From an uncultured Bacilli bacterium (GTDB taxonomy: Bacteria > Bacillota_I > Bacilli_A > RF39 > UBA660), in contig CANQKX010000004.1 in assembly GCA_947624565.1 (NCBI GenBank), positions 3,273-67,272 of the forward strand: DNA of 64,000 nucleotides, given 5' to 3'. This document shows positions 1 through 10,148 of this stretch, in pieces (position 1 is the stretch's first letter; every line of letters starts with the position of its first letter). The notes under the pieces were generated by a model. That model ran no database searches, had not been told where the DNA came from, and saw only the letters and a list, made by a program, of their open reading frames with translations. A program made the translations under genes and the position numbers.

Positions 1-231
1 TTTTCATCCTTAAATTTGTTACGCTTAATGCAACTAATCGTGTAACTTACTGCTATAATCATATCATTAAATTCATAATGCTGAAGTAGATTTTCGAATA
101 GAGCATCAAATAAGTATAAATCAAATTCATTATCACTTGAAATAAACTTTCTTCTAATAAGTTCTCTTGTAAAAAAGTGATGTGTTTGGGGTGTTTTATC
201 ATTTTTCATAAATTTTCTTGTATCTTGGTTC
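1..231 (-). CDS. Partial hypothetical CDS; the N-terminal part lies in the window and the 3' end runs off the left edge
   Basis: A minus-strand ATG at 231..229 opens a reading frame through position 1 (MNQDTRKFMKNDKTPQTHHFFTRELIRRKF...). It is absent from the ORF track because no stop lies in the window. No family was recognised. Confidence 0.25.
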
Positions 232-331
232 ATTTTTCCATTATCTAAACTCCTAATCTAATACATTTAAACTTAGTAAGATAATAAAAGTCAATAGAGT
301 TATAAGATTATCCTATTAAAAATTAGTTGTA

Positions 332-361
332 AAAAATAGAGCAACCCATGATTCGGTTGCT
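332..361 (-). terminator. Rho-independent terminator after the paralog pair
   Basis: A GC-containing hairpin, agcaacc-catgattc-ggttgct, sits immediately after the stop codon at 362-364. On the minus strand a T-run follows it (ctatttttt). Confidence 0.5.
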
Positions 362-802
362 TTACTCACACATACTTAATATTCTATTTGTCACCGCATC
401 CAGATCTTCTGCTTGAATCATGTTATCCAGCTCTCCAGTTGCACGCAACTCTTCAATCAAAGATATAACTGAATCAAGCATTTCAGGAGGATGCTTAATA
501 CTATCTCCCTGATAAACAATTTTGATGATCTTTTTATAGAATTCTCTATCAGTACTAACAAAACCTCCATCAGTATCACGATTGCATTTAACTAAACATT
601 TTGCATCAAAACTATCAGTTAAATGTGGGGGTTCGTACTCAATAACCAGTTTCCTCAACTTTTCCATAGTTGCTCTCTTCAAAACAAACAACTTCTTCTG
701 CTTGTTGTCAACAACATAACCATCTTGCTTAACAGTTACTGAATACAAACCATTATTTCTTTCTGTAACAAGCATAAGTAACCAATTAATATTGTTCTTC
801 AT
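362..802 (-). CDS. Hypothetical protein; downstream member of a tandem paralog pair of unknown family
   Basis: The 146-aa ORF has a GGGGAG SD 7 nt upstream. Its N-terminal half aligns by eye with the 808..1191 protein (MK..W...; YSVTVKQDGYVVDN vs YTLSVFPDGTIYGN; VLKRATMEKLRKLV vs LLTDDAIAKIQALV). G+C is visibly higher than in the rest of the window. Confidence 0.5.
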   Translation of the reverse strand: MKNNINWLLMLVTERNNGLYSVTVKQDGYVVDNKQKKLFVLKRATMEKLRKLVIEYEPPHLTDSFDAKCLVKCNRDTDGGFVSTDREFYKKIIKIVYQGDSIKHPPEMLDSVISLIEELRATGELDNMIQAEDLDAVTNRILSMCE

Positions 803-807
803 CAGAG

Positions 808-1191
808 TTACTCCCCATAAAAAGTTTCTAAAACTGAAATCAGGTCATCCCTTCCACCGAACGCCTTATCAATATTTGACTCATTAAATATAACACGCAT
901 AACATCTTCAGCATAACGCCAACCTTTAACCTTTAATTCACGCCTTTTGTTACTAATATCCCAAAATTTAACTATTAATCCAGTTGGATCCTGAACATCA
1001 TATCCATAATTCTTAATAATGGATAAATCCTCATGAACTAAGGCTTGAATCTTTGCAATTGCATCATCAGTTAACAGGCAAACCTTATGTCCACACTCAT
1101 TCCCATATATGGTTCCATCAGGAAACACACTAAGCGTGTACTTCGTTCTAGGATTTTGAATCTTAATAAGCCAATGTGTAACAGCTTTCAT
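808..1191 (-). CDS. Hypothetical protein; upstream member of the tandem paralog pair
   Basis: The 127-aa ORF lies 5 nt upstream of its paralog, so the two probably form an operon. No known motif was recognised. Nucleotide composition is atypical for this window. Confidence 0.5.
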   Translation of the reverse strand: MKAVTHWLIKIQNPRTKYTLSVFPDGTIYGNECGHKVCLLTDDAIAKIQALVHEDLSIIKNYGYDVQDPTGLIVKFWDISNKRRELKVKGWRYAEDVMRVIFNESNIDKAFGGRDDLISVLETFYGE

Positions 1192-1442
1192 AACACGTAC
1201 CTTTCTATAATTCTCAAACAGCCATTATTTGACCACTTTCAAGCCCTTTGAGAACCCTTAACCAAGTGGCTAGAACAAATACCCATATAACCAGCAATAT
1301 CGCTCAAATAAGGCATTATTTAGGCTTCTTCTTATTCCAACTACTTAAGTTGGAGACACTAAGGTCTTCCAAATCATCATAAACTATCTCTTCAAATATT
1401 TTTCTAGTTAAAATATCTTAAACTTTGTTTTGGTTCTGTATA

Positions 1443-1628
1443 TTAATTAGTTTCTGTATATAATCTTGCTTCCTCTAATTTCTTATTCTTCTTTAAATTA
1501 AATTGAATCTTTAAAAAATGAATTGAAATTATTAGTAGTATTGGTATTAGAATTGTGAGCATTAGTATTATTGATAATCGTGCGTTTATTGGGGTTGCAC
1601 TTCCTCGCCTCGCCATAAGACATCCCAT
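1443..1628 (-). CDS. Possible small hydrophobic membrane peptide (61 aa)
   Basis: It has a single strongly hydrophobic stretch (LSIILMLTILIPILLIISIHFLKI) with a charged C-terminus. No SD precedes it and the 5' codons are GC-rich. It may be spurious. Confidence 0.2.
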   Translation of the reverse strand: MGCLMARRGSATPINARLSIILMLTILIPILLIISIHFLKIQFNLKKNKKLEEARLYTETN

Positions 1629-2014
1629 ATCGAAGTTGTAATATTCTACGCTGTAAATGTAACAGCTTGCTAAGCTATCATATTAATATATAAAAAATAT
1701 CTAAATTACTAGGAAATTATATGAATTACGTATTTGTAACTTAAATACTTTCATTTCAACTATTGAGGTAGAGAATAAGTTGAAACTATTCATTACATTA
1801 ATTGATAGCTCACACAAGTTGTCATATTACTATACGAAATTAATTAGAGAAATTACAAAAAAGTATCAAAAAATTATTATTTTCATTAATTCTACTATAA
1901 AATCTTCACTAAAAAATACTCAAATCAAAATTTCAAAAACGTTTCTTGGCCCTACTTGGTTATACTTTTGAACAAGCATAAAATATGCTAAAAAGCATTT
2001 TATTAGTTCTGTGT

Positions 2015-2046
2015 GTATTCTCTTATTTAGATTTAAATGTTATAAT
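2015..2046 (+). promoter_or_regulatory. Putative sigma-A promoter with extended -10 for the methyltransferase gene
   Basis: The sequence tgtTATAAT (TG at 2038-2039, TATAAT at 2041-2046) sits ~30 nt upstream of the GGAGG SD at 2066-2070. Confidence 0.4.
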
Positions 2047-2077
2047 ATCCATTGAATTAGGAAATGGAGGAATGCTA

Positions 2078-4264
2078 ATGTCAAAAGACAAAAAAACTGT
2101 AATAAGAAACTTAAATAAAGCATTGAAAGAATTTGATAGTAAAAATAAAGAAAACACATATCAAAACTATATCTTCGTAATCTTATTCTATCGCTACCTA
2201 TCTATCGATATAGTGAAGTATGTAAAAAATAAATACAATAAAAATTACGAAAAATTATCTAACACTGAAGCTGAAGAATTAAAAAATGAAATTATAAGTG
2301 ACAAAGACTATTTCATTTTACCAAGTGAATTATTTCAAAATGTTATTAAAGAAAGACAAGATGATCCTTACTTAGATTCAGTTATAAATAGTATCTTCAA
2401 TAAAATAAGAAAATCGTCTAAATATGATATTTGTGATATATTTAAAAATATTGACGTTGAAGATGAAAAACTAGGGCATAGCAATGAAGAACGAAGTCAG
2501 GCTTTATCCGTAGCATTAAAATCTATTGGCAATATTAAGTACGACTTTGATGATTCTGAATTCGATCTATTTGGGCTTGTCTATGAATTATTACTTAATA
2601 AATATGATGATAATCTAAAAATCAGTTTAGGTAATGGTGTATATTATACTCAAAGTACATTAGTTAAACTACTAATAGAAATTAGCCAATTATATGTATC
2701 TAATCCCAAGAATGTATACGATCCAACATGTGGAAGCGGTTCTTTACTAGTTGAATACTCAAAGTTCAATAATAAAATTTCTTTTTATGGTCAAGAATTA
2801 TTAAGTGTTCCATATGGTTTATGCAAAATGAATATGATCTTACATGGTGTAAAAGACTATCATATTACCAATGCTGATACTTTACTTACCTATAGCAAAA
2901 GCGATAAAGAAAAGTATGAACTAATACTATCTAATCCACCTTTCTCTGTTAGTTGGAATACACCATCCATAAATGATGAACGTTTCAATAATATTCCTGT
3001 CCTTCCACCTAAGAATTACGCTGACTATGCTTTTATTTACCATATACTATATACATTAAACCAAAATGGTGTGGCATTAGTAATTAATGGACCAGCTATG
3101 CTAAGTAGAACATTAAAAGGTAATGATGAAACTTCAATACGTGAACATCTAGTAAAAGAAAATGTAATTGATACTATAATTCAGCTACCAAACAACTTTT
3201 TCCTAAGAACTAGTATTGGAGCATGCTTATTTGTATTAAGAAAGAATAAAGCTGATAAAAATATATTATTTATTGACGCAACATCTATATATACTACTTC
3301 TGGTCATACAAAAACATTCAATGATGCCAATGTAGAAAATATCATTGATATAATAAAACATAGAGAAAATATCGATGATTTATCTTATTTAGCAACACCT
3401 GAAGAAATAGCAGACAACAATTATACCTTCTCCATTGAATCATATATAAATTACAAAAAAAAGAAAACTTTCAAAAAAACAACTACTAATTTATTAACTC
3501 CCAAATTATTACAAGAATTAGAGTATCAAAATGCTAGAAGATATAAATACTTCTTTAATCAACTAAAAGATATGGATGCAAAGCTTCCAGAAATCATTAA
3601 GAAATTAACAAATGATCGTGATATACAAACAGTTAAATTGAGCGATATAGCTGTCTCAATAAAATCAGGAACAAAACTTACACAAATTGGGGCAATTAGT
3701 AATGATGATTTTCCATACTACTATATTACATCAAAGGAAATAGAAAATGGTTCAATTATCCCTATTAGCACTAGAAAAAGTGGTGATGGTAGAGATATAA
3801 AAGGCACCCAAAAGATCAATAAAGAAGCTTTAAAAGAACTATTAAGATTGTCTAACTTGGAAAAAGGCGACATACTCTTTACTCTATCCGAAACTGGTCC
3901 TAAAGTTGCTATAGTAAATAGAACTGACTTTGGTTTCAACCATTCAATCTATATTCTTAAACCAAAAAAAGATAAAATTAATCCTTTGTTCTTAAGATAT
4001 ATGTTGGAATCTGACTATATGAAAAATCAAATATCAAATAAATTATCTCATGCTAATGCAAAGTCTATAAAGATAGAAGAATTCAGAAATTTAACTATAC
4101 CAGATATACCATTAGAATCACAAGAACAAATAGCTTCATTATTAGAAAAATTACAAGGTGAGTATACAATGACTATGGATAGTTATATTTATGAAGAATA
4201 CTTATATAAAGAAATATATAATAATTATAAGAATCAATTTTTTAATGACATAACTAAAAAATAA
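2078..4264 (+). CDS. Type I-like DNA N6-adenine methyltransferase fused to a single HsdS target-recognition domain (M-S fusion, ~729 aa); no restriction subunit is present
   Basis: The tracked ORF begins at 1985, but GGAGG at 2066-2070 is correctly spaced only for the ATG at 2078 (MSKDKK). The N-terminus is HsdM_N-like. Motif I is VYDPTCGSGSLLV and motif IV is LSNPPFS. The methylase ends in an HsdM-like tail (NNYTFSIESYI). About 280 further residues follow with HsdS features (VKLSDIAVSIKSG..., conserved PLESQEQIASLLEKL). Confidence 0.8.
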   Translation: MSKDKKTVIRNLNKALKEFDSKNKENTYQNYIFVILFYRYLSIDIVKYVKNKYNKNYEKLSNTEAEELKNEIISDKDYFILPSELFQNVIKERQDDPYLDSVINSIFNKIRKSSKYDICDIFKNIDVEDEKLGHSNEERSQALSVALKSIGNIKYDFDDSEFDLFGLVYELLLNKYDDNLKISLGNGVYYTQSTLVKLLIEISQLYVSNPKNVYDPTCGSGSLLVEYSKFNNKISFYGQELLSVPYGLCKMNMILHGVKDYHITNADTLLTYSKSDKEKYELILSNPPFSVSWNTPSINDERFNNIPVLPPKNYADYAFIYHILYTLNQNGVALVINGPAMLSRTLKGNDETSIREHLVKENVIDTIIQLPNNFFLRTSIGACLFVLRKNKADKNILFIDATSIYTTSGHTKTFNDANVENIIDIIKHRENIDDLSYLATPEEIADNNYTFSIESYINYKKKKTFKKTTTNLLTPKLLQELEYQNARRYKYFFNQLKDMDAKLPEIIKKLTNDRDIQTVKLSDIAVSIKSGTKLTQIGAISNDDFPYYYITSKEIENGSIIPISTRKSGDGRDIKGTQKINKEALKELLRLSNLEKGDILFTLSETGPKVAIVNRTDFGFNHSIYILKPKKDKINPLFLRYMLESDYMKNQISNKLSHANAKSIKIEEFRNLTIPDIPLESQEQIASLLEKLQGEYTMTMDSYIYEEYLYKEIYNNYKNQFFNDITKK

Positions 4265-4300
4265 AGGAAAGAGAAATAAAAACTCTTTCCTTTGTTTATA
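4263..4300. terminator. Bidirectional rho-independent terminator between the convergent MTase and ParB-like genes
   Basis: The perfect inverted repeat aaaggaaagag-aaataaaaa-ctctttccttt is followed by a T-rich tract. Confidence 0.6.
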
Positions 4301-4330
4301 TTGTTTACAAGATCAATAGGCTTTATTATC

Positions 4331-5182
4331 TTACTTATCTCTATTTCTATATGATTTAATGGCATTGATAATATAATCTTCAATATAACGTTTGTCTCTC
4401 TTAGTTAATTCATATGGTAAAGCCTGCTCTATTCTATCCCTATTAAATGATATTTTATCGTGTTGATTACCTTTCTCCTCAGCTAATATATTCTCTACAA
4501 TATCCGCACTGAGTTGCTTTGACTCACTTAACTTCCTTATTCTTATTGTCTGAGCATGAGAAGGACTTAAATCATCATAAACCATTGTTGAATAGACTAG
4601 CATCTGTTCATCCTTATTTAGGTATGATAGCTCTACAGCAGGCTTTATACCCATAGTAATATTATGCTTATCATTAAATCTAGCTGTATTATCGACTATC
4701 TTTAATAATTCAGGTATTAAATAAGTTAATCTAATGAATCTATATATTTGTGTCTTAGTGTCATTAATACCATTTAAAAGCTTTGTTCCCTTAGGGAACG
4801 AAGTATCTAATTTCTTTCCCTGGTGTTTCATGGCGTCCATTTTCATCTTGTAAGCAAAGGCACGCTCACTAGGCAATAATTTCTCCCTTTGAAGATTAGA
4901 ATCAACCATAAATATAACTGCTTCATCATCCGTTAAATCCTTAACATAGGCATCAACATATTCTTCGCCATTAAGTTCTAAAGCCTTTAATCTTCTATGT
5001 CCAGAAAGCATCTCGTACTTGCTACCTTTTGCTCTAACTACAACAGGATTTAACAAACCATTATCTTTAATACTCTGAGCCAATTCATTTAATAATGCAT
5101 CTACTTCTACAATAAATGGATGATTCTTAAATGGTTCTATATCAACAATTTTAATCTTCTTTAACTCGCTCATCTCTATCAC
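4331..5182 (-). CDS. ParB/Spo0J/Noc-family DNA-binding protein (ParB N-terminal domain plus HTH)
   Basis: The N-terminal ParB/Srx arginine patch is LSGHRRLKALEL. The HTH region ends in LSPSHAQTIR, matching the ParB LSxGHARAL signature. No parA-like ATPase lies adjacent. Confidence 0.7.
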   Translation of the reverse strand: MIEMSELKKIKIVDIEPFKNHPFIVEVDALLNELAQSIKDNGLLNPVVVRAKGSKYEMLSGHRRLKALELNGEEYVDAYVKDLTDDEAVIFMVDSNLQREKLLPSERAFAYKMKMDAMKHQGKKLDTSFPKGTKLLNGINDTKTQIYRFIRLTYLIPELLKIVDNTARFNDKHNITMGIKPAVELSYLNKDEQMLVYSTMVYDDLSPSHAQTIRIRKLSESKQLSADIVENILAEEKGNQHDKISFNRDRIEQALPYELTKRDKRYIEDYIINAIKSYRNRDK

Positions 5183-5666
5183 CTAAAGAATAAGTTATCT
5201 TCCATTCAATGTAATCAGCATATTTTATCTCTCTTCTCTTTCTCTTCTTCCTCATCAAATCCCATTGATTGACAAATGCTCTAATAATATTTAAGAATGC
5301 TTCATCACCAGTAGAAACATCAGATAAATCAAAACGATAATTTGGAAGTAATTCCTCCAACCATAATAAAGTATATATGAGATCAATTGGTTCCTTATAG
5401 TTATATTGCTTAATTGCTTCATAACTAACATTTAACAATTCAGCTATCTTCTTTGTTCTTGATATATTGGGGTTCCTATCTCCCTTCTCATATCTTGTCA
5501 TTGTACGTCTCCTATTATCACCTTTAGCACCTAATAAACCAGCTATTTCATCCTGAGTCTTGGATCTAAACTGTCTAACAAAAGCTATACGAGAGCCTTG
5601 CGATAAATCTCTTAAAATTGGCCTAGAATACATTAATTTCATTAGTAAATACCTCCTATTATTCAT
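5151..5666 (-). CDS. XRE-family helix-turn-helix DNA-binding protein
   Basis: The HTH_XRE-like segment is TQDEIAGLLG...TMTRYEKGDRNPNISRTKKIAELLNVSYEAI. The gene overlaps the downstream ParB-like start by ~30 nt, implying an operon. Confidence 0.5.
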   Translation of the reverse strand: MNNRRYLLMKLMYSRPILRDLSQGSRIAFVRQFRSKTQDEIAGLLGAKGDNRRRTMTRYEKGDRNPNISRTKKIAELLNVSYEAIKQYNYKEPIDLIYTLLWLEELLPNYRFDLSDVSTGDEAFLNIIRAFVNQWDLMRKKRKRREIKYADYIEWKITYSLGDRDERVKED

Positions 5667-5797
5667 CGCAGAATATCATCAAAAAAGACTAAATCAGCGA
5701 ATATATGCGATTATATATTCAGACTTAGTCTACATTTTATTATTAAGCTCAACAAATAATTGGGTATTAACACGATAAACTTAAGTATTATCGGCTA

Positions 5798-8437
5798 TTA
5801 TAAGTTCCTCCCATTTTTGATAGCAGCTTGTGCTGCGGCTAATCTTGCAATTGGAACTCTAAATGGAGAACAAGATACATATGTTAATCCAATATTATGA
5901 CAGAATTCAATAGTTGATGGATCCCCCCCATGTTCACCACAAATTCCTAAATGAATATCAGGTCTTGTTTTTTTACCATTTTCAACTGCCATTTTAACTA
6001 ATTGACCAACACCATTTTGATCAAGTTTAGCAAATGGATCTGACTCATAGATTTTATTTGAATAATAACTATCTAAGAATTTACCTGCATCATCACGAGA
6101 AAAACCGAATGTCATTTGTGTTAAATCATTTGTACCAAATGAGAAGAATTCTGCTGATTTAGCTATATCACCAGCAAGTAATGCTGCCCTTGGTATTTCA
6201 ATCATAGTTCCTATATGATATTTAATATCTGAATTTTTCTCTTTTTTAACTTGCTCTGCAGTTTTTACTACTATATCTTTTACAAAATCTAACTCCTTTT
6301 TTTCACCAACAAGTGGAATCATTATTTCTGGTTCAATTGAAAAACCATCTTCCTCACTTACTTCAATTGCTGCTTCAATTAAAGCTCTTGTTTGCATTTT
6401 AGCAATTTCAGGATAAGTAACTGCTAAACGACATCCTCTATGACCCATCATTGGATTAAATTCATGTAAATAATTAATTTTATCTGTTAATTTTTCTACT
6501 GAAACACCCATATCTTTTGCAAGAGCTTTAATATCTTCTTCATTAGTTGGTAAAAATTCATGTAAAGGTGGATCTAAATAACGAACTGTCATTGGTAATC
6601 CTTTTAACTCTTTATACATTGCTTTAAAATCACCTTTTTGAAATGGAATTAATTCATTTAAAGCACTTTCTCTTTCTTCAACAGTATCAGATAAAATCAT
6701 TTTCCTTATTTTAGGTATTCTTTCTTCATCAAAGAACATGTGTTCTGTACGACATAAACCAATACCTTGTGCACCTAATCTAACTGCATTTGCAGTATCT
6801 CTTGGATTATCAGCATTTGTTCTAACTTGTAATTTTCTAAACTTATCAGCCCATGACATAATTCTACCAAAGTTACCAGATACTGTAGCTTCTTCAGTTT
6901 CAACTTCACCTTTATAAATTTTACCTGTTGAACCATCTAATGAAATATAATCACCTTTTTTGAATGTATATCCTCCAAGAGTAAATTCTTCTTTTTCTTC
7001 ATTTATTTTAATATCACCACATCCTGATACACAACAAGTTCCCATACCACGAGCAACAACTGCAGCATGTGAAGTCATTCCACCACGAACTGTTAATATA
7101 CCTTGTGCAGCAACCATTCCTTCAATATCTTCTGGTGTAGTTTCAAGTCTAACTAATATTACTTTTTCTCCTTTTCCACCAGTACCTAATTTTTTTGCTT
7201 CTTCTGCAGTAAATACTATTTTACCTGTTGCTGCACCTGGAGATGCTGGAAGTGCTGATCCAACTTCTTGTGCCTTACTTAAAATATCTTTATTAAATGT
7301 TGGATGTAATAATTGATCTAATGATTTAGCTTCTATTCTAAGTACTGCTTCTTCTTCAGTAATCATTTTTTCATCAACTAAATCACATGCAATATTAATA
7401 GCGGCTTGAGCTGTTCTTTTACCATTTCTTGTTTGTAAGAAATATAATTTACCTTCTTCAATAGTAAATTCCATATCTTGCATATCACGATAGTGATTTT
7501 CTAGTTTAGTAGCAAGTTTCATAAATTCTTCATAACATTCTGGTAAATCTTCCTTTAATTTAGTTATTGGTTGTGGTGTTCTAACACCTGCAACAACATC
7601 TTCACCTTGTGCATTAATTAAATATTCACCAAATATACCTTTTTCTCCAGTAGATGGATTACGAGTAAATGCAACTCCTGTACCTGATGTATCTCCTTTA
7701 TTACCAAATACCATTGTTTGAACATTAACTGCTGTTCCCCAATCACCTGGAATATCATTCATTCTTCTATAAACGATTGCTCTTGGATTATCCCAAGATC
7801 TAAATACAGCTTTTACTGCACCCATCAATTGTTCTTTAGGATCTTGTGGAAATTCTTCACCATTCATAGTTTCTTTATAAATTTTCTTAAATCTTTCTAC
7901 TAATTCTTTTAAGTCATCAACTGTAAGTTCTGTATCATATTTAATACCTTTATCATTTTTTATTTCATCAATAATTTTTTCAAAATAAGACTTTGGTACT
8001 TCCATAACAACATCTGAATACATTTGAATAAATCTTCTATAAGAATCATATGCAAATCTTTCATTATTTGTTTTTTTTGCAAATCCTACTACTGCTTCAT
8101 CATTTAAACCTAAATTTAATATTGTATCCATCATCCCTGGCATAGATGCCCTTGCTCCTGATCTAACTGAAACAAGTAAAGGATCATTATTATCCCCAAA
8201 TTTCTTACCATTAATTTTTTCTATTTCTTTTAATGCAGTAAATATTTGATCTTGTATTTCGTTAGATATATTCTCCCCATCATTATAATATTCTGTACAA
8301 GCCTCTGTTGTAATAGTAAATCCTTGTGGTATAGGTAAGCCTAAATTAGTCATTTCTGCCAAATTAGCTCCTTTACCTCCAAGTAAATTTCTCATTTCAG
8401 CGTTTCCTTCACTGAATAAATAAACATATTTTTTCAT
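5798..8437 (-). CDS. ppdK: Pyruvate, phosphate dikinase
   Basis: The PEP-utilising His motif is GGMTSHAAVVARGMG. The N-terminus is MKKYVYLFSEGNAEMRNLLGGKGANLAEM. The ORF is full length, so the start was moved to M7 of the tracked ORF. Confidence 0.9.
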   Translation of the reverse strand: MKKYVYLFSEGNAEMRNLLGGKGANLAEMTNLGLPIPQGFTITTEACTEYYNDGENISNEIQDQIFTALKEIEKINGKKFGDNNDPLLVSVRSGARASMPGMMDTILNLGLNDEAVVGFAKKTNNERFAYDSYRRFIQMYSDVVMEVPKSYFEKIIDEIKNDKGIKYDTELTVDDLKELVERFKKIYKETMNGEEFPQDPKEQLMGAVKAVFRSWDNPRAIVYRRMNDIPGDWGTAVNVQTMVFGNKGDTSGTGVAFTRNPSTGEKGIFGEYLINAQGEDVVAGVRTPQPITKLKEDLPECYEEFMKLATKLENHYRDMQDMEFTIEEGKLYFLQTRNGKRTAQAAINIACDLVDEKMITEEEAVLRIEAKSLDQLLHPTFNKDILSKAQEVGSALPASPGAATGKIVFTAEEAKKLGTGGKGEKVILVRLETTPEDIEGMVAAQGILTVRGGMTSHAAVVARGMGTCCVSGCGDIKINEEKEEFTLGGYTFKKGDYISLDGSTGKIYKGEVETEEATVSGNFGRIMSWADKFRKLQVRTNADNPRDTANAVRLGAQGIGLCRTEHMFFDEERIPKIRKMILSDTVEERESALNELIPFQKGDFKAMYKELKGLPMTVRYLDPPLHEFLPTNEEDIKALAKDMGVSVEKLTDKINYLHEFNPMMGHRGCRLAVTYPEIAKMQTRALIEAAIEVSEEDGFSIEPEIMIPLVGEKKELDFVKDIVVKTAEQVKKEKNSDIKYHIGTMIEIPRAALLAGDIAKSAEFFSFGTNDLTQMTFGFSRDDAGKFLDSYYSNKIYESDPFAKLDQNGVGQLVKMAVENGKKTRPDIHLGICGEHGGDPSTIEFCHNIGLTYVSCSPFRVPIARLAAAQAAIKNGRNL

Positions 8438-8503: not shown

Positions 8504-9394
8504 TTATTTTCTATTTCTTGGATGACATTTATTAAATACATCTCTTAAATGTTCATTACTTACATGTGTATATATCTCTGTTGAAGATAATGATTCGTGA
8601 CCCAAAAGTTCTTGAACTGCCAATAAATCACAACCATTATCCAAAAGATGTGTAGCAAACGTATGTCTAAACATATGTGGAGTTATATTTAATTTTATAC
8701 TTGTTCTTTTTATAATATCATCTATTATTTGTTCAATTCTTCTTGTTGTTAATCTATCTTTTTTTTCTCCTACAATTAAATATTCACTTTCTGTTTGCAT
8801 AAGTAATTTTTTTCTGCCATCATTTATATACATATTCATTATATCATTAGCATAATCACCAAAAGATACAATTCTTTCTTTGCTACCTTTACCAAATATT
8901 AATATAGTTTTATTACTAAAATCTATATCTTTTAATTTTATATTAACAAGTTCAGATACCCTTATACCACATCCATATAATATCTCTAAAATAAGTTTTT
9001 CTCTTTGACCTTCTTTAGTATTAATATTAGGTACATTAAATATTTCTTCAATATTATTATAGTTAATAAACTTAGGTATTCTTTTTTCCTTTTTAGGAGA
9101 CGATATTAACAAAAACGGATTTGATTTAATTTTATTATTTATAACCAAATATTTATAAAATGTTCTAAGTGAACTTAATTTTCTAGATATTGATGATTTG
9201 GAATTATTCTTATCAGTTAAATAATTGAGATATTTAATACATTCATTATAATTCATATTTTTATAATCTAATTTTTCATTTTTTAAAAATATATTAAATT
9301 CCTGTATATCTCTAGTATAATTTTTACAAGTAAAATCAGAATAATTTTTCTGATATTTTAAATATTCTATAAAATTATTTATATTTTTTTCCAT
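8504..9394 (-). CDS. Tyrosine site-specific recombinase of the XerC/XerD family
   Basis: The C-terminal catalytic region is HMFRHTFATHLLDNGCDLLAVQELLGHESLSSTEIYTHV (R..HxxR..Y). The N-terminal core-binding region is MEKNINNFIEYL...SISRKLSSLRTFYKYL. The tracked ORF extends 28 codons further upstream, and the true start is uncertain. Confidence 0.8.
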   Translation of the reverse strand: MEKNINNFIEYLKYQKNYSDFTCKNYTRDIQEFNIFLKNEKLDYKNMNYNECIKYLNYLTDKNNSKSSISRKLSSLRTFYKYLVINNKIKSNPFLLISSPKKEKRIPKFINYNNIEEIFNVPNINTKEGQREKLILEILYGCGIRVSELVNIKLKDIDFSNKTILIFGKGSKERIVSFGDYANDIMNMYINDGRKKLLMQTESEYLIVGEKKDRLTTRRIEQIIDDIIKRTSIKLNITPHMFRHTFATHLLDNGCDLLAVQELLGHESLSSTEIYTHVSNEHLRDVFNKCHPRNRK

Positions 9395-10148
9395 ATGGAG
9401 TATTATCCATTTCATCTGGAATATACCAATCATCATATTCAATTTCTTCTTTTGGTTGTTGATAATCTTCATCTTCACGTGTTAGACAAATCTTTTTCTT
9501 TTTTTCTTTTTTACTATTTAATGCTTTTAAATATTCTTTTTCTAAATTTCTTCCTGCTATTTCACATTTATATAAATTTTTGTCTGATGGTCTATTATCC
9601 CTTTTATTTAATTCTTCTCTTTCTTCCGCATCAAGTGTATAAAATATAAAATCTCTTATTATGTTATAATATGGTTCTATTTTTTTAATAAAGAAATTAT
9701 AATAATTTGCATCATATTTAAAATTTTTATCAGTTATCATATTATATAAATCATAAATAACTGCATATTTGTATTTTTTTGTATAAATTTTTCTATTTGT
9801 ATCATCTAATAAAAATAAGAAATAAAAATTACCTTCAATATAACTAATTATTCTTTCTTTATCTTTTTTTGAAATAAATATACGAGCATTTCTTCTAAGT
9901 AAAGAATCAGTTATAAATTTATAGTCTTTAAACATAACAAATCTTCGACCTTCACTATCTTGAATATAAAAATTATATTTTTCTATATCATTAATATCGA
10001 TACTATTACTATAATTTAATATTTTTTCAAATAATTCTTTACTATCTTTAAATTCTGTTGTAAATTGATCAATTTCAATAAGATTACCTTCACTTACATT
10101 TATTTTTATATTATTATCTTTAGATTGTATATTAAGAACCAATTGCAT
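9375..10148 (-). CDS. Hypothetical protein (257 aa, Lys/Tyr-rich with an acidic C-terminus)
   Basis: The ORF has an AAGGTAGGT SD-like sequence upstream. No recognisable motifs were found. Confidence 0.4.
   Translation of the reverse strand: MQLVLNIQSKDNNIKINVSEGNLIEIDQFTTEFKDSKELFEKILNYSNSIDINDIEKYNFYIQDSEGRRFVMFKDYKFITDSLLRRNARIFISKKDKERIISYIEGNFYFLFLLDDTNRKIYTKKYKYAVIYDLYNMITDKNFKYDANYYNFFIKKIEPYYNIIRDFIFYTLDAEEREELNKRDNRPSDKNLYKCEIAGRNLEKEYLKALNSKKEKKKKICLTREDEDYQQPKEEIEYDDWYIPDEMDNTPYGKKYK

Follow-up and report, generated by a model that had tools for sequence, protein, structure and literature searches.

At the left end of a 64,000-nucleotide stretch of DNA from an uncultured Bacilli bacterium of the RF39 lineage (assembly GCA_947624565.1, contig CANQKX010000004.1, positions 3,273 to 67,272; hereafter the window), the housekeeping gene ppdK is followed by a block of genes at positions 1-5780 that encode an XRE-family regulator, a ParB-like protein, a DNA methyltransferase fused to a specificity domain, and small proteins of uncharacterised families. 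The question raised by this locus is what kind of unit the block belongs to and how it came to lie beside ppdK. A reading made from the sequence alone had regarded it as a compositionally foreign anti-phage or mobile-element module, and all of the open reading frames (ORFs) that it listed are present where it placed them. Here, we present evidence that the block belongs to an integrated, horizontally mobile island, of which it forms the ppdK-proximal (attL) part, and that this island joins the chromosome within the last approximately ten codons of ppdK. We further consider it likely that the block represents the first ~5.8 kb of an island resembling the staphylococcal cassette chromosome (SCC), inserted in the tail of ppdK most likely through a large serine recombinase.

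The sequence-only reading had contrasted a G+C content in the mid-30s percent for the block with the mid-20s for housekeeping genes. Calculated G+C is 24.2% for the whole window, 29.1% for positions 1-5780 and 23.7% for the remainder. Raw G+C is unable to separate the block from housekeeping DNA, because ppdK itself has a G+C content of 31.2%, and several other conserved or housekeeping stretches reach 29-31%; we therefore dropped it as proof of foreignness. The foreign character of the block was instead borne out by G+C at third codon positions (GC3). Across the 45 ORFs from ppdK onward, which served as the host reference, GC3 averages 0.097 (standard deviation (sd) 0.026), with ppdK itself at 0.097, whereas the six ORFs of the block lie between 0.18 and 0.30 (methyltransferase 0.184; XRE and ParB genes 0.25-0.26; orfB and orfA 0.27-0.30), or 3 to 8 sd over the host mean. 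Since GC3 separates its ORFs from those of the host, the block is compositionally foreign, and its horizontal acquisition as part of a mobile element is supported.

The position at which this foreign DNA meets the chromosome was revealed by contigs that carry the same element in other hosts. Thirteen contigs encode exactly the same 728-residue methyltransferase as the window, and five of these, obtained from other samples (L087-L090 and L092), are at least 99.7% identical to it from position 1786 to 5824-5836. Samples in which the island occurs include ERZ27249519, ERZ27249530 and DRR848816. These five contigs show 0-10 differences from the window over 1786-5749 and then 40-60 differences per 250 nucleotides in ppdK, the switch in identity falling at about 5825-5837, within the last codons of the gene, beyond which ppdK is ~20% diverged. 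The final 27 nucleotides of ppdK (5798-5824, minus strand; …AIKNGRNL followed by the stop codon) fall in the identical, element-side part and are the same in hosts whose ppdK genes differ by ~20%. Because identity breaks inside the last codons of ppdK, the element brings its own replacement tail for the gene. The right boundary of the island, its attL crossover region, is thus located inside ppdK at about 5816-5836 (minus strand) and not at 5780, where the sequence-only reading had ended a ~5.8-kb island that proves to be the ppdK-proximal part of a much longer element. A second lineage (L097-L101), in which ParB is 76% identical to that of the window, displays the same pattern: the element is near-identical among its members, while their ppdK genes differ by 20-30% and have different neighbours upstream. 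Occurrence of the same element in different host backgrounds is therefore shown for two lineages, and the earlier suggestion of a mobile-element affiliation is upheld by a near-identical island lying beside ppdK genes that are ~20% diverged.

The left boundary had been placed off-window, correctly, since the island continues for at least 6.7 kb beyond position 1. Look-ups of exactly matching proteins recovered two contigs that overlap the left end of the window, L001 (window positions 1-903, 100% identity) and L082 (positions 1-1317, 99.3%). L082 runs 6,735 bp further left than the window, such that at least 12.5 kb of the island has been seen. This extension encodes, in order, ORFs of 112, 107 and 75 residues, a divergent 101-residue helix-turn-helix (HTH) protein, a 200-residue membrane protein, a 223-residue receiver-domain protein, a 174-residue HEPN protein, an HsdM of 520 residues, an HsdS of 389 residues with two recognition domains, and a 233-residue ORF; it closes with the first 43 residues of a further protein, which are 64% identical to the N-terminus of HsdR from a sister element (L105). 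The island thus includes a canonical type I operon, situated 3.2-6.7 kb past the left edge of the window. Over the first 3.2 kb of the extension, as read from L001, the ORFs are also foreign in composition (GC3 0.19-0.25). The 223-residue receiver protein is membrane-anchored and is followed by the HEPN protein, the pair occupying L082 3142-4422, some 1.8-3.1 kb to the left of position 1; PADLOC returned no match to either, and the two may form a small cargo module. Contigs reaching further left were sought by scanning JGI metagenomes with the 233-residue ORF, which found none, and by a repeated look-up of orfB, which added none. An HsdR homologue used as a bridge led to an unrelated locus, and the element reached through a resolvase homologue (P0255) was a different one. 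The whole island of the window is estimated at roughly 18-20 kb.

A complete relative of this island, ~18 kb in length, is present on a single 69.7-kb contig of which L105 and L110 are two stretches. The window, L097 and L105 represent three lineages with a common backbone, consisting of the XRE and ParB genes, a convergent methyltransferase gene of the same fused M-S type, a 0.75-0.9-kb gap, orfB, orfA, and small ORFs. In the sister element, whose ParB is 72% identical to that of the window, the backbone is followed by hsdM, hsdS, a gene for a 284-residue protein and hsdR, then by small ORFs and an HTH gene, and finally by genes encoding a 200-residue resolvase and a 568-residue large serine recombinase (L110) with Resolvase and Recombinase domains. 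The small resolvase/invertase-type serine recombinase (L110 10001-10603) is situated just upstream of the large recombinase and has an 82% identical counterpart in L097 (19531-20133); it may serve in resolution, inversion or directionality.

Both junctions of the sister element could be read. The proximal junction in L105 is GCACAAGCCGCTATCAAAAATAAGAGGAACTAG. The distal junction, attR, consists of …GGGACAAGCTGCTATCAAATCTAAAGGGCAATCAAAATAG, which is a displaced ppdK tail, followed by a strong terminator hairpin, that of the host's ppdK, and then by the host ABC-F and tRNA-synthetase genes. The core GCTATCAAA, found in the window at 5816-5824 (plus-strand coordinates), is present in both attL and attR of the sister. 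Joining the element-side halves rebuilds an attP in which dyad arms TTCCTCTTAT and ATAAGAGGAA flank this core, a layout that fits the sites used by large serine recombinases, and the P' arm of this reconstructed attP, GAGGAACT, occurs at 5804-5811 in the ppdK tail of the window. In L025, L070 and L075, a pseudo-ppdK tail is preceded, either directly or with one gene in between, by the gene for a recombinase 43-46% identical to that of the sister, and in L039 the recombinase gene is a pseudogene. Together with the sister element, both junctions were found in L019, L025, L070, L075 and L078.

We surveyed the ppdK locus in 80 species representatives, of which 62 include at least 700 bp downstream of the gene. 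The best ppdK homologue is 88% identical to that of the window, and the homologues are labelled as uncultured Bacilli, Clostridia, Tenericutes or Mycoplasma, 'Clostridium sp. CAG:508' and 'Acholeplasma sp. CAG:878', which would suit a host of the RF39-like group. An XRE homologue (33-73% identity) lies 3' of ppdK in 17 of the 62 loci and is followed by a ParB gene in about eight; the identity of XRE does not track that of ppdK, and the genes further on vary by locus. Several loci have accumulated cassettes at this site. L019 (12622-19700) has a 7-kb island between copies of an 81-nucleotide repeat that starts 20 nucleotides before the ppdK stop codon, whereas in L078 (12628-18300) three tandem cassettes are each closed by a ppdK-tail copy and a terminator. 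Short cassettes with ppdK-type tails and no recombinase are found in L071, L048, L057, L028, L044 and L046. The sequence on the element side of the cassette tails falls into a few conserved types, for example CCGAACTAAACTGTGG, GTTATCCTTAGTTTTTTGGTT and AACTTCCTCTTATAT. L039 is also among the loci with tandem short cassettes, most of which have no recombinase gene. In addition to a decayed parB, the L019 island contains ORFs that by eye resemble a nucleotidase, a radical-SAM protein, an HhH-type protein, a dNMP kinase, a sugar-kinase/ATPase fusion and a MazG-type protein; from these likenesses, they could be nucleotide-modifying or defence cargo.

Such variability raises the alternative that there is no discrete mobile element here, and that the region 3' of ppdK is a defence-island hotspot whose contents are swapped by homologous recombination through conserved flanks. 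Almost all of the 62 loci are indeed hypervariable in this region, many islands contain no recombinase, and 17 of the 80 contigs stop no more than 500 bp after ppdK. Set against this are the sharp and recurrent breakpoints inside a stretch of ~20 nucleotides of ppdK, the duplicated ppdK tails with their element-side arms, the dyad symmetry of attP, and the presence, in two element lineages, of a homologous large serine recombinase beside the distal tail; we regard exchange at a mere hotspot as very improbable. Two further routes of insertion were considered and dropped. A xer gene upstream of ppdK had suggested integration at dif through Xer, as in IMEX-like elements, but the locus shows no flip in gene orientation or GC skew, and a serine recombinase lies at the distal junctions. 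The gene in question, for an XerC/D-like tyrosine recombinase (window 8504-9478), lies directly upstream of ppdK and has a host-like GC3 of 0.138; in 34 of the 80 related loci, the 10 kb upstream of ppdK include a homologue, a notable linkage although nothing connects the gene with the island. Tn7-like insertion or a group II intron, as explanations for the conserved element-side ends, were set aside because of the recombinase and the long duplications of the tail.

The most likely account of the window is therefore an SCC-like island inserted by a large serine recombinase. On this account, the element of the window would end as the sister does, with the recombinase gene at its far end, and this enzyme would recombine an attP imitating the end of ppdK with an attB located in the conserved codons for …AAQAAIK…. 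Integration would leave ppdK intact and displace its native terminator to the far end of the island; further elements could then stack at the same site, and the type I system, the HEPN protein and the remaining genes would be exchangeable cargo. The distal end of the window's element would be expected to show an arm like AACTTCCTCTTAT, followed by a second …ACAAGCNGCNATCAAA… ppdK tail. Several points weigh against this account. In the 12.5 kb of the window's element available from the window and L082, there is no ppdK-tail copy that would form a direct repeat, no recombinase and no distal end. L097, the closest lineage, was reached only as far as the 200-residue resolvase, and several short islands (L019, L056, L078) have no recombinase. 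We observed neither an excised circle nor, in the same species, an empty site. The crossover cannot be assigned to a single base, as the attP dyad is centred between AC and AA and one host variant differs by 4-5 nucleotides on the element side. Finally, the roles suggested for XRE, ParB, the methyltransferase, orfA and orfB derive from domains and position only.

The ppdK islands have their nearest known counterparts in SCC and SCCmec elements, which are mobilised by Ccr recombinases. Both insert site-specifically into the 3' end of a housekeeping gene that is left intact, both generate short direct repeats containing the gene tail, both form tandem arrays that include recombinase-less cassettes (pseudo-SCC-like), and both carry restriction-modification cargo. 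Furthermore, CcrB and CcrC are the best NCBIfam matches of the ppdK-island recombinases. These matches reach 106-140 bits, far under the cutoffs of 900, and the recombinases are therefore not Ccr orthologues. The target here is ppdK rather than rlmH (orfX), and the host is an uncultured, AT-rich gut lineage of Bacillota. The ppdK islands also differ in having an XRE-ParB head module, a methyltransferase of the M-S type as part of the backbone, and a small resolvase alongside a single large recombinase. Because the target gene is a different one and the recombinases are not orthologous to Ccr, these islands are not members of SCC. In the PDB, the relatives of the sister recombinase include a conjugative-transposon recombinase, YokA of SPbeta and the integrase of phiC31. 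The systems of SPbeta (SprA), Tn5397 (TndX), Tn4451 (TnpX), phiC31 and A118 offer a second comparison, with which the ppdK islands have in common a recombinase at the edge of the element, as seen in the sister, and a short quasi-palindromic attP. They differ in that the fully read sister has no phage or conjugation functions, and in that attP mimics and replaces the coding tail of its target.

One relative of the window is, by contrast, equipped with conjugation genes. L102 (9529-20876; GCA_045120805.1, JBGVFG010000006.1) carries, after ppdK, an XRE gene, a ParB gene whose product is 68% identical to that of the window, and genes for a TED/SpaA adhesin, a sortase, SSB, a type IV secretion system (T4SS) pilin, a DUF8208 protein and a VirB4-like ATPase. 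An XRE-ParB head followed by genes for the T4SS pilin and the VirB4-like ATPase identifies L102 as a conjugative element at the same site, although its contig stops short of the far end. The window might likewise hold the leading end of an integrative conjugative element (ICE), with T4SS and relaxase genes further left and off-window, and the fact that orphan methyltransferases and ParB-like genes are typical of leading regions counts in its favour. However, L102 does not have the methyltransferase/orfB/orfA backbone common to the window, L097 and L105, and no conjugation gene is present in the ~18 kb of the fully read sister or in the 12.5 kb seen of the window's element. T4SS and relaxase genes were found neither among the six proteins of the window block nor in L082 or L105/L110, and occur only in the more distant L102. 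As far as it has been seen, the element is not an ICE, and a conjugative continuation to the left is unlikely.

The block could also belong to a decayed prophage or phage satellite. The ParB, methyltransferase and XRE proteins each match PHROGs, and a distantly related pair of ParB and serine recombinase genes is present on an IMG/VR contig (L094). Neither the window nor L082 nor L105/L110, however, contains a gene for a capsid, tail, terminase, primase or packaging function, relatives on viral contigs number three and are only 38-41% identical, and a DNA search of phage and plasmid collections yielded ParB matches of ~100 nucleotides (70-76% identity) and nothing longer. A phage origin is thus extremely improbable.

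What, then, are the functions of the genes within the block? The gene at 2078-4264 (plus strand) encodes a stand-alone gamma-class N6-adenine DNA methyltransferase in which an HsdM core (N6_Mtase, 8e-78) is joined to a single HsdS-type domain. It scores 308.5 bits against TIGR00497 (cutoff 242.75), its translation contains the motifs NPPF and DPTCGSG, and the nearest solved structure is HsdM of EcoR124; Specificity_I matches place the single recognition domain at residues ~548-725. The description of this protein as a type I-like methyltransferase fused to a single specificity domain was thus accurate. It had also been thought to have no nuclease partner, which is true of positions 1-5780: no hsdR or hsdS adjoins 2078-4264, and none of the six proteins of positions 1-5780, when searched against Pfam, NCBIfam and PADLOC 2.0, is an HsdR, ParA, helicase or nuclease. 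The hsdM-hsdS-hsdR operon 3.2-6.7 kb to the left nevertheless undoes the idea of an orphan methyltransferase in an element without a nuclease, since an off-window hsdR had been named in advance as evidence against it. That operon has the canonical type I form, and its HsdM is only 37% identical to the M-S methyltransferase; its separate two-domain HsdS is not part of the gene at 2078-4264. Although the latter resembles type I restriction-modification systems in its HsdM core, above the TIGR00497 cutoff, and in its HsdS-type recognition domain, it combines M and a single half-S in one polypeptide and is encoded alone, convergent with parB and with no adjacent hsdR. It is not a type I system. 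The sisters L097 and L105 have a methyltransferase in the same convergent position, with a recognition domain that has diverged much faster than the catalytic core. The methyltransferase gene is a backbone gene of the element lineage, and its product may act as a dimer on a symmetric target, protecting the DNA of the element or of the host.

The methyltransferase, ParB, XRE and the small proteins might, alternatively, constitute a new anti-phage system with an unannotated effector. Their order is maintained in three lineages in which ParB is 72-76% identical, and the rapid divergence of the recognition domain and the tiny, uncharacterised families of orfA and orfB would be in keeping with such a role. 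PADLOC, however, found no complete anti-phage system among the six proteins of the block, where it returned type I M/S-type matches on one gene and weak matches of the 'control protein' type to HTH proteins, and matched only type I M and S in the off-window stretch. The same element already bears a canonical system with hsdR, and position at the head of an element is suited to regulation or maintenance. In addition, XRE and ParB occupy the same position without the methyltransferase or orfA/orfB in L056 and L061, and do so together with conjugation genes in L102. Because of these arrangements, XRE-ParB appears to be the head, or regulatory module, of the element and not a part of a methyltransferase-centred defence system, which makes the anti-phage interpretation quite unlikely.

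The first gene of the element encodes the XRE-family HTH regulator (5151-5666, minus strand; Pfam HTH_19, 2.7e-9), which has a C-terminal extension and is annotated by gene callers in a form of 158-163 residues. Its 3' end and stop codon are overlapped by parB (4331-5173, minus strand), which encodes a ParB/Noc-like protein (ParB_N, 1.3e-15; TIGR00180, 74 bits, cutoff 58). The sequence-only reading was right to describe a standalone ParB-like gene without parA that overlaps an XRE gene. The protein retains the GxRR motif as SGHRR, and its relatives in the PDB are Spo0J, Noc and ParB, the similarity being confined to the N-domain. In gut metagenomes, there are 8000 candidate relatives at E≤1e-20, and at least 120 of those among the matches listed are at least 60% identical. 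No ParA-type protein is present among the six window proteins, the L082 ORFs or the called genes of L105/L110; with the ParB_N and TIGR00180 domains present and the ParA partner missing, parB is not part of a ParABS system. We consider XRE and ParB to be a head module that probably serves regulation or maintenance, possibly through a palindrome within parB.

This palindrome, of 25 bp (12+1+12), is located at 4780-4804 in the region of parB that encodes the linker and occurs once in the window. A palindrome of the same geometry at the same codon position, right after KHQG, is found in 12 ParB genes, the others being carried by L017, L026, L033, L056, L061, L095 (two genes), L096, L101, L104 and L107. 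The outer arms are conserved (ACTTCG…CGAAGT), whereas the inner bases vary between elements yet stay complementary. Pairing was observed in 90.3% of cells, compared with 63.9% in shuffled sequences (0 of 500) and 29-47% in slid controls, and 8 of the 12 pairs have changed on both sides, statistics for which the register was picked from the same sequences. The copy in the window uses the G/C-ending codons TCG and CCG, against a host GC3 of ~0.10. The palindrome is most readily interpreted as a candidate parS-like site for the surrounding ParB, although it may instead be an RNA hairpin.

KorA and KorB of IncP plasmids, together with ParB and Noc, provide a precedent for the former possibility. 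KorB, ParB and Noc are ParB-CTPase clamps that are loaded at palindromic sites, the operator of KorB is odd-length, and in Bacillus subtilis a parS lies inside spo0J. The XRE-ParB module is similar in combining a ParB N-domain bearing GxRR with an adjacent gene for a small HTH repressor, in having no ParA, and in possessing an odd-length palindrome within parB. It differs in that only the N-domain is detectably similar to solved ParB and Noc structures, and in that its palindrome spans 25 bp, of which the inner part varies. Tentatively, and with rather more doubt than conviction, we propose that XRE-ParB is a KorA/KorB-like module in which ParA-independent clamp loading at its own palindrome would control silencing, insulation from ppdK read-through or maintenance, and, as part of the same proposal, that the conserved ppdK tail is an SCC-like landing pad for a guild of elements within a major, uncultured lineage of the gut. 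That guild would span serine-recombinase islands, recombinase-less tandem mini-cassettes and at least one conjugative element.

Two hairpins border these genes. Between the ppdK stop codon and the start of XRE, a long AU-rich hairpin (inverted repeat I2) followed by U6 (5681-5731, minus strand) resembles a terminator or an operator. Its folding energy of -31.2 kcal/mol, compared with -20.6±3.3 for shuffled sequences (z = -3.2), renders doubtful the earlier statement that ppdK has no obvious terminator; a related sequence occurs in L105. At the other end of parB, in the intergenic space toward which it and the methyltransferase gene converge, a hairpin at 4259-4297 (I3; 15-nucleotide arms, 93% complementary, and a 9-nucleotide loop) resembles a bidirectional terminator.

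To the left of the methyltransferase gene, ~0.9 kb (1192-2077) contains no supported gene and comprises the promoter region of the methyltransferase gene together with a block of conserved nucleotides. The matching gaps in the sisters are 745-883 bp (L097 13107-13989; L105 13089-13833), and the block common to the three lineages is TATATTAnTATGA…ATTTACAGCG. The gap also includes an Asn/Thr-rich stretch that is AAT/ACT-repetitive. Rfam gave no match to the gap, and an invertible promoter was dropped as a candidate since there are no convincing inverted repeats; candidates for its content are a promoter, an RNA and an origin of transfer. Eight independent metagenome contigs start or stop within it (window 1198-1811). 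A 61-residue ORF in this region (1443-1628), earlier suggested to encode a hydrophobic peptide, is probably not a gene, because its start codon is missing in the homologous gaps of both sisters. Beyond the gap lie two backbone genes with orthologues in L097 and L105, orfB (808-1191, minus strand; 127 residues) and orfA (362-802, minus strand; 146 residues). Neither these nor the 61-residue ORF have a match in Pfam, NCBIfam, PHROGs or PADLOC. The orfB family has 27 representatives among 1.84 billion proteins, and a structure search with orfB gave no functional lead. The two had been called tandem paralogs; BLASTP finds no similarity between them, and what stands of the claim is a weak alignment of their three-sequence profiles over the N-terminal ~50 residues alone (hhalign probability 84%, E 7e-6). 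At the left edge of the window (1-233, minus strand) are the first 77 codons of a backbone gene of 112 residues that is complete in L001 and L082.

Full-text searches of the literature turned up no description of serine recombinases or genomic islands in connection with ppdK or RF39. Elements of this SCC-like kind are known, whereas the target, the host and the XRE-ParB head appear to be undescribed. The ppdK islands provide a concrete, testable explanation for the transfer of defence and methylation genes among species of an uncultured gut lineage with reduced genomes, one that specifies an attB site in ppdK and a family of candidate recombinases; such recombinases and their att sites are of practical interest as integration tools. 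The XRE-ParB heads and their covarying palindromes offer a natural series of matched proteins and sites for the study of ParB-type specificity outside chromosome partition. For annotation, they carry the warning that the ppdK stop region and the genes that follow it are element-derived in many metagenome-assembled genomes, in which contigs tend to break at this point.

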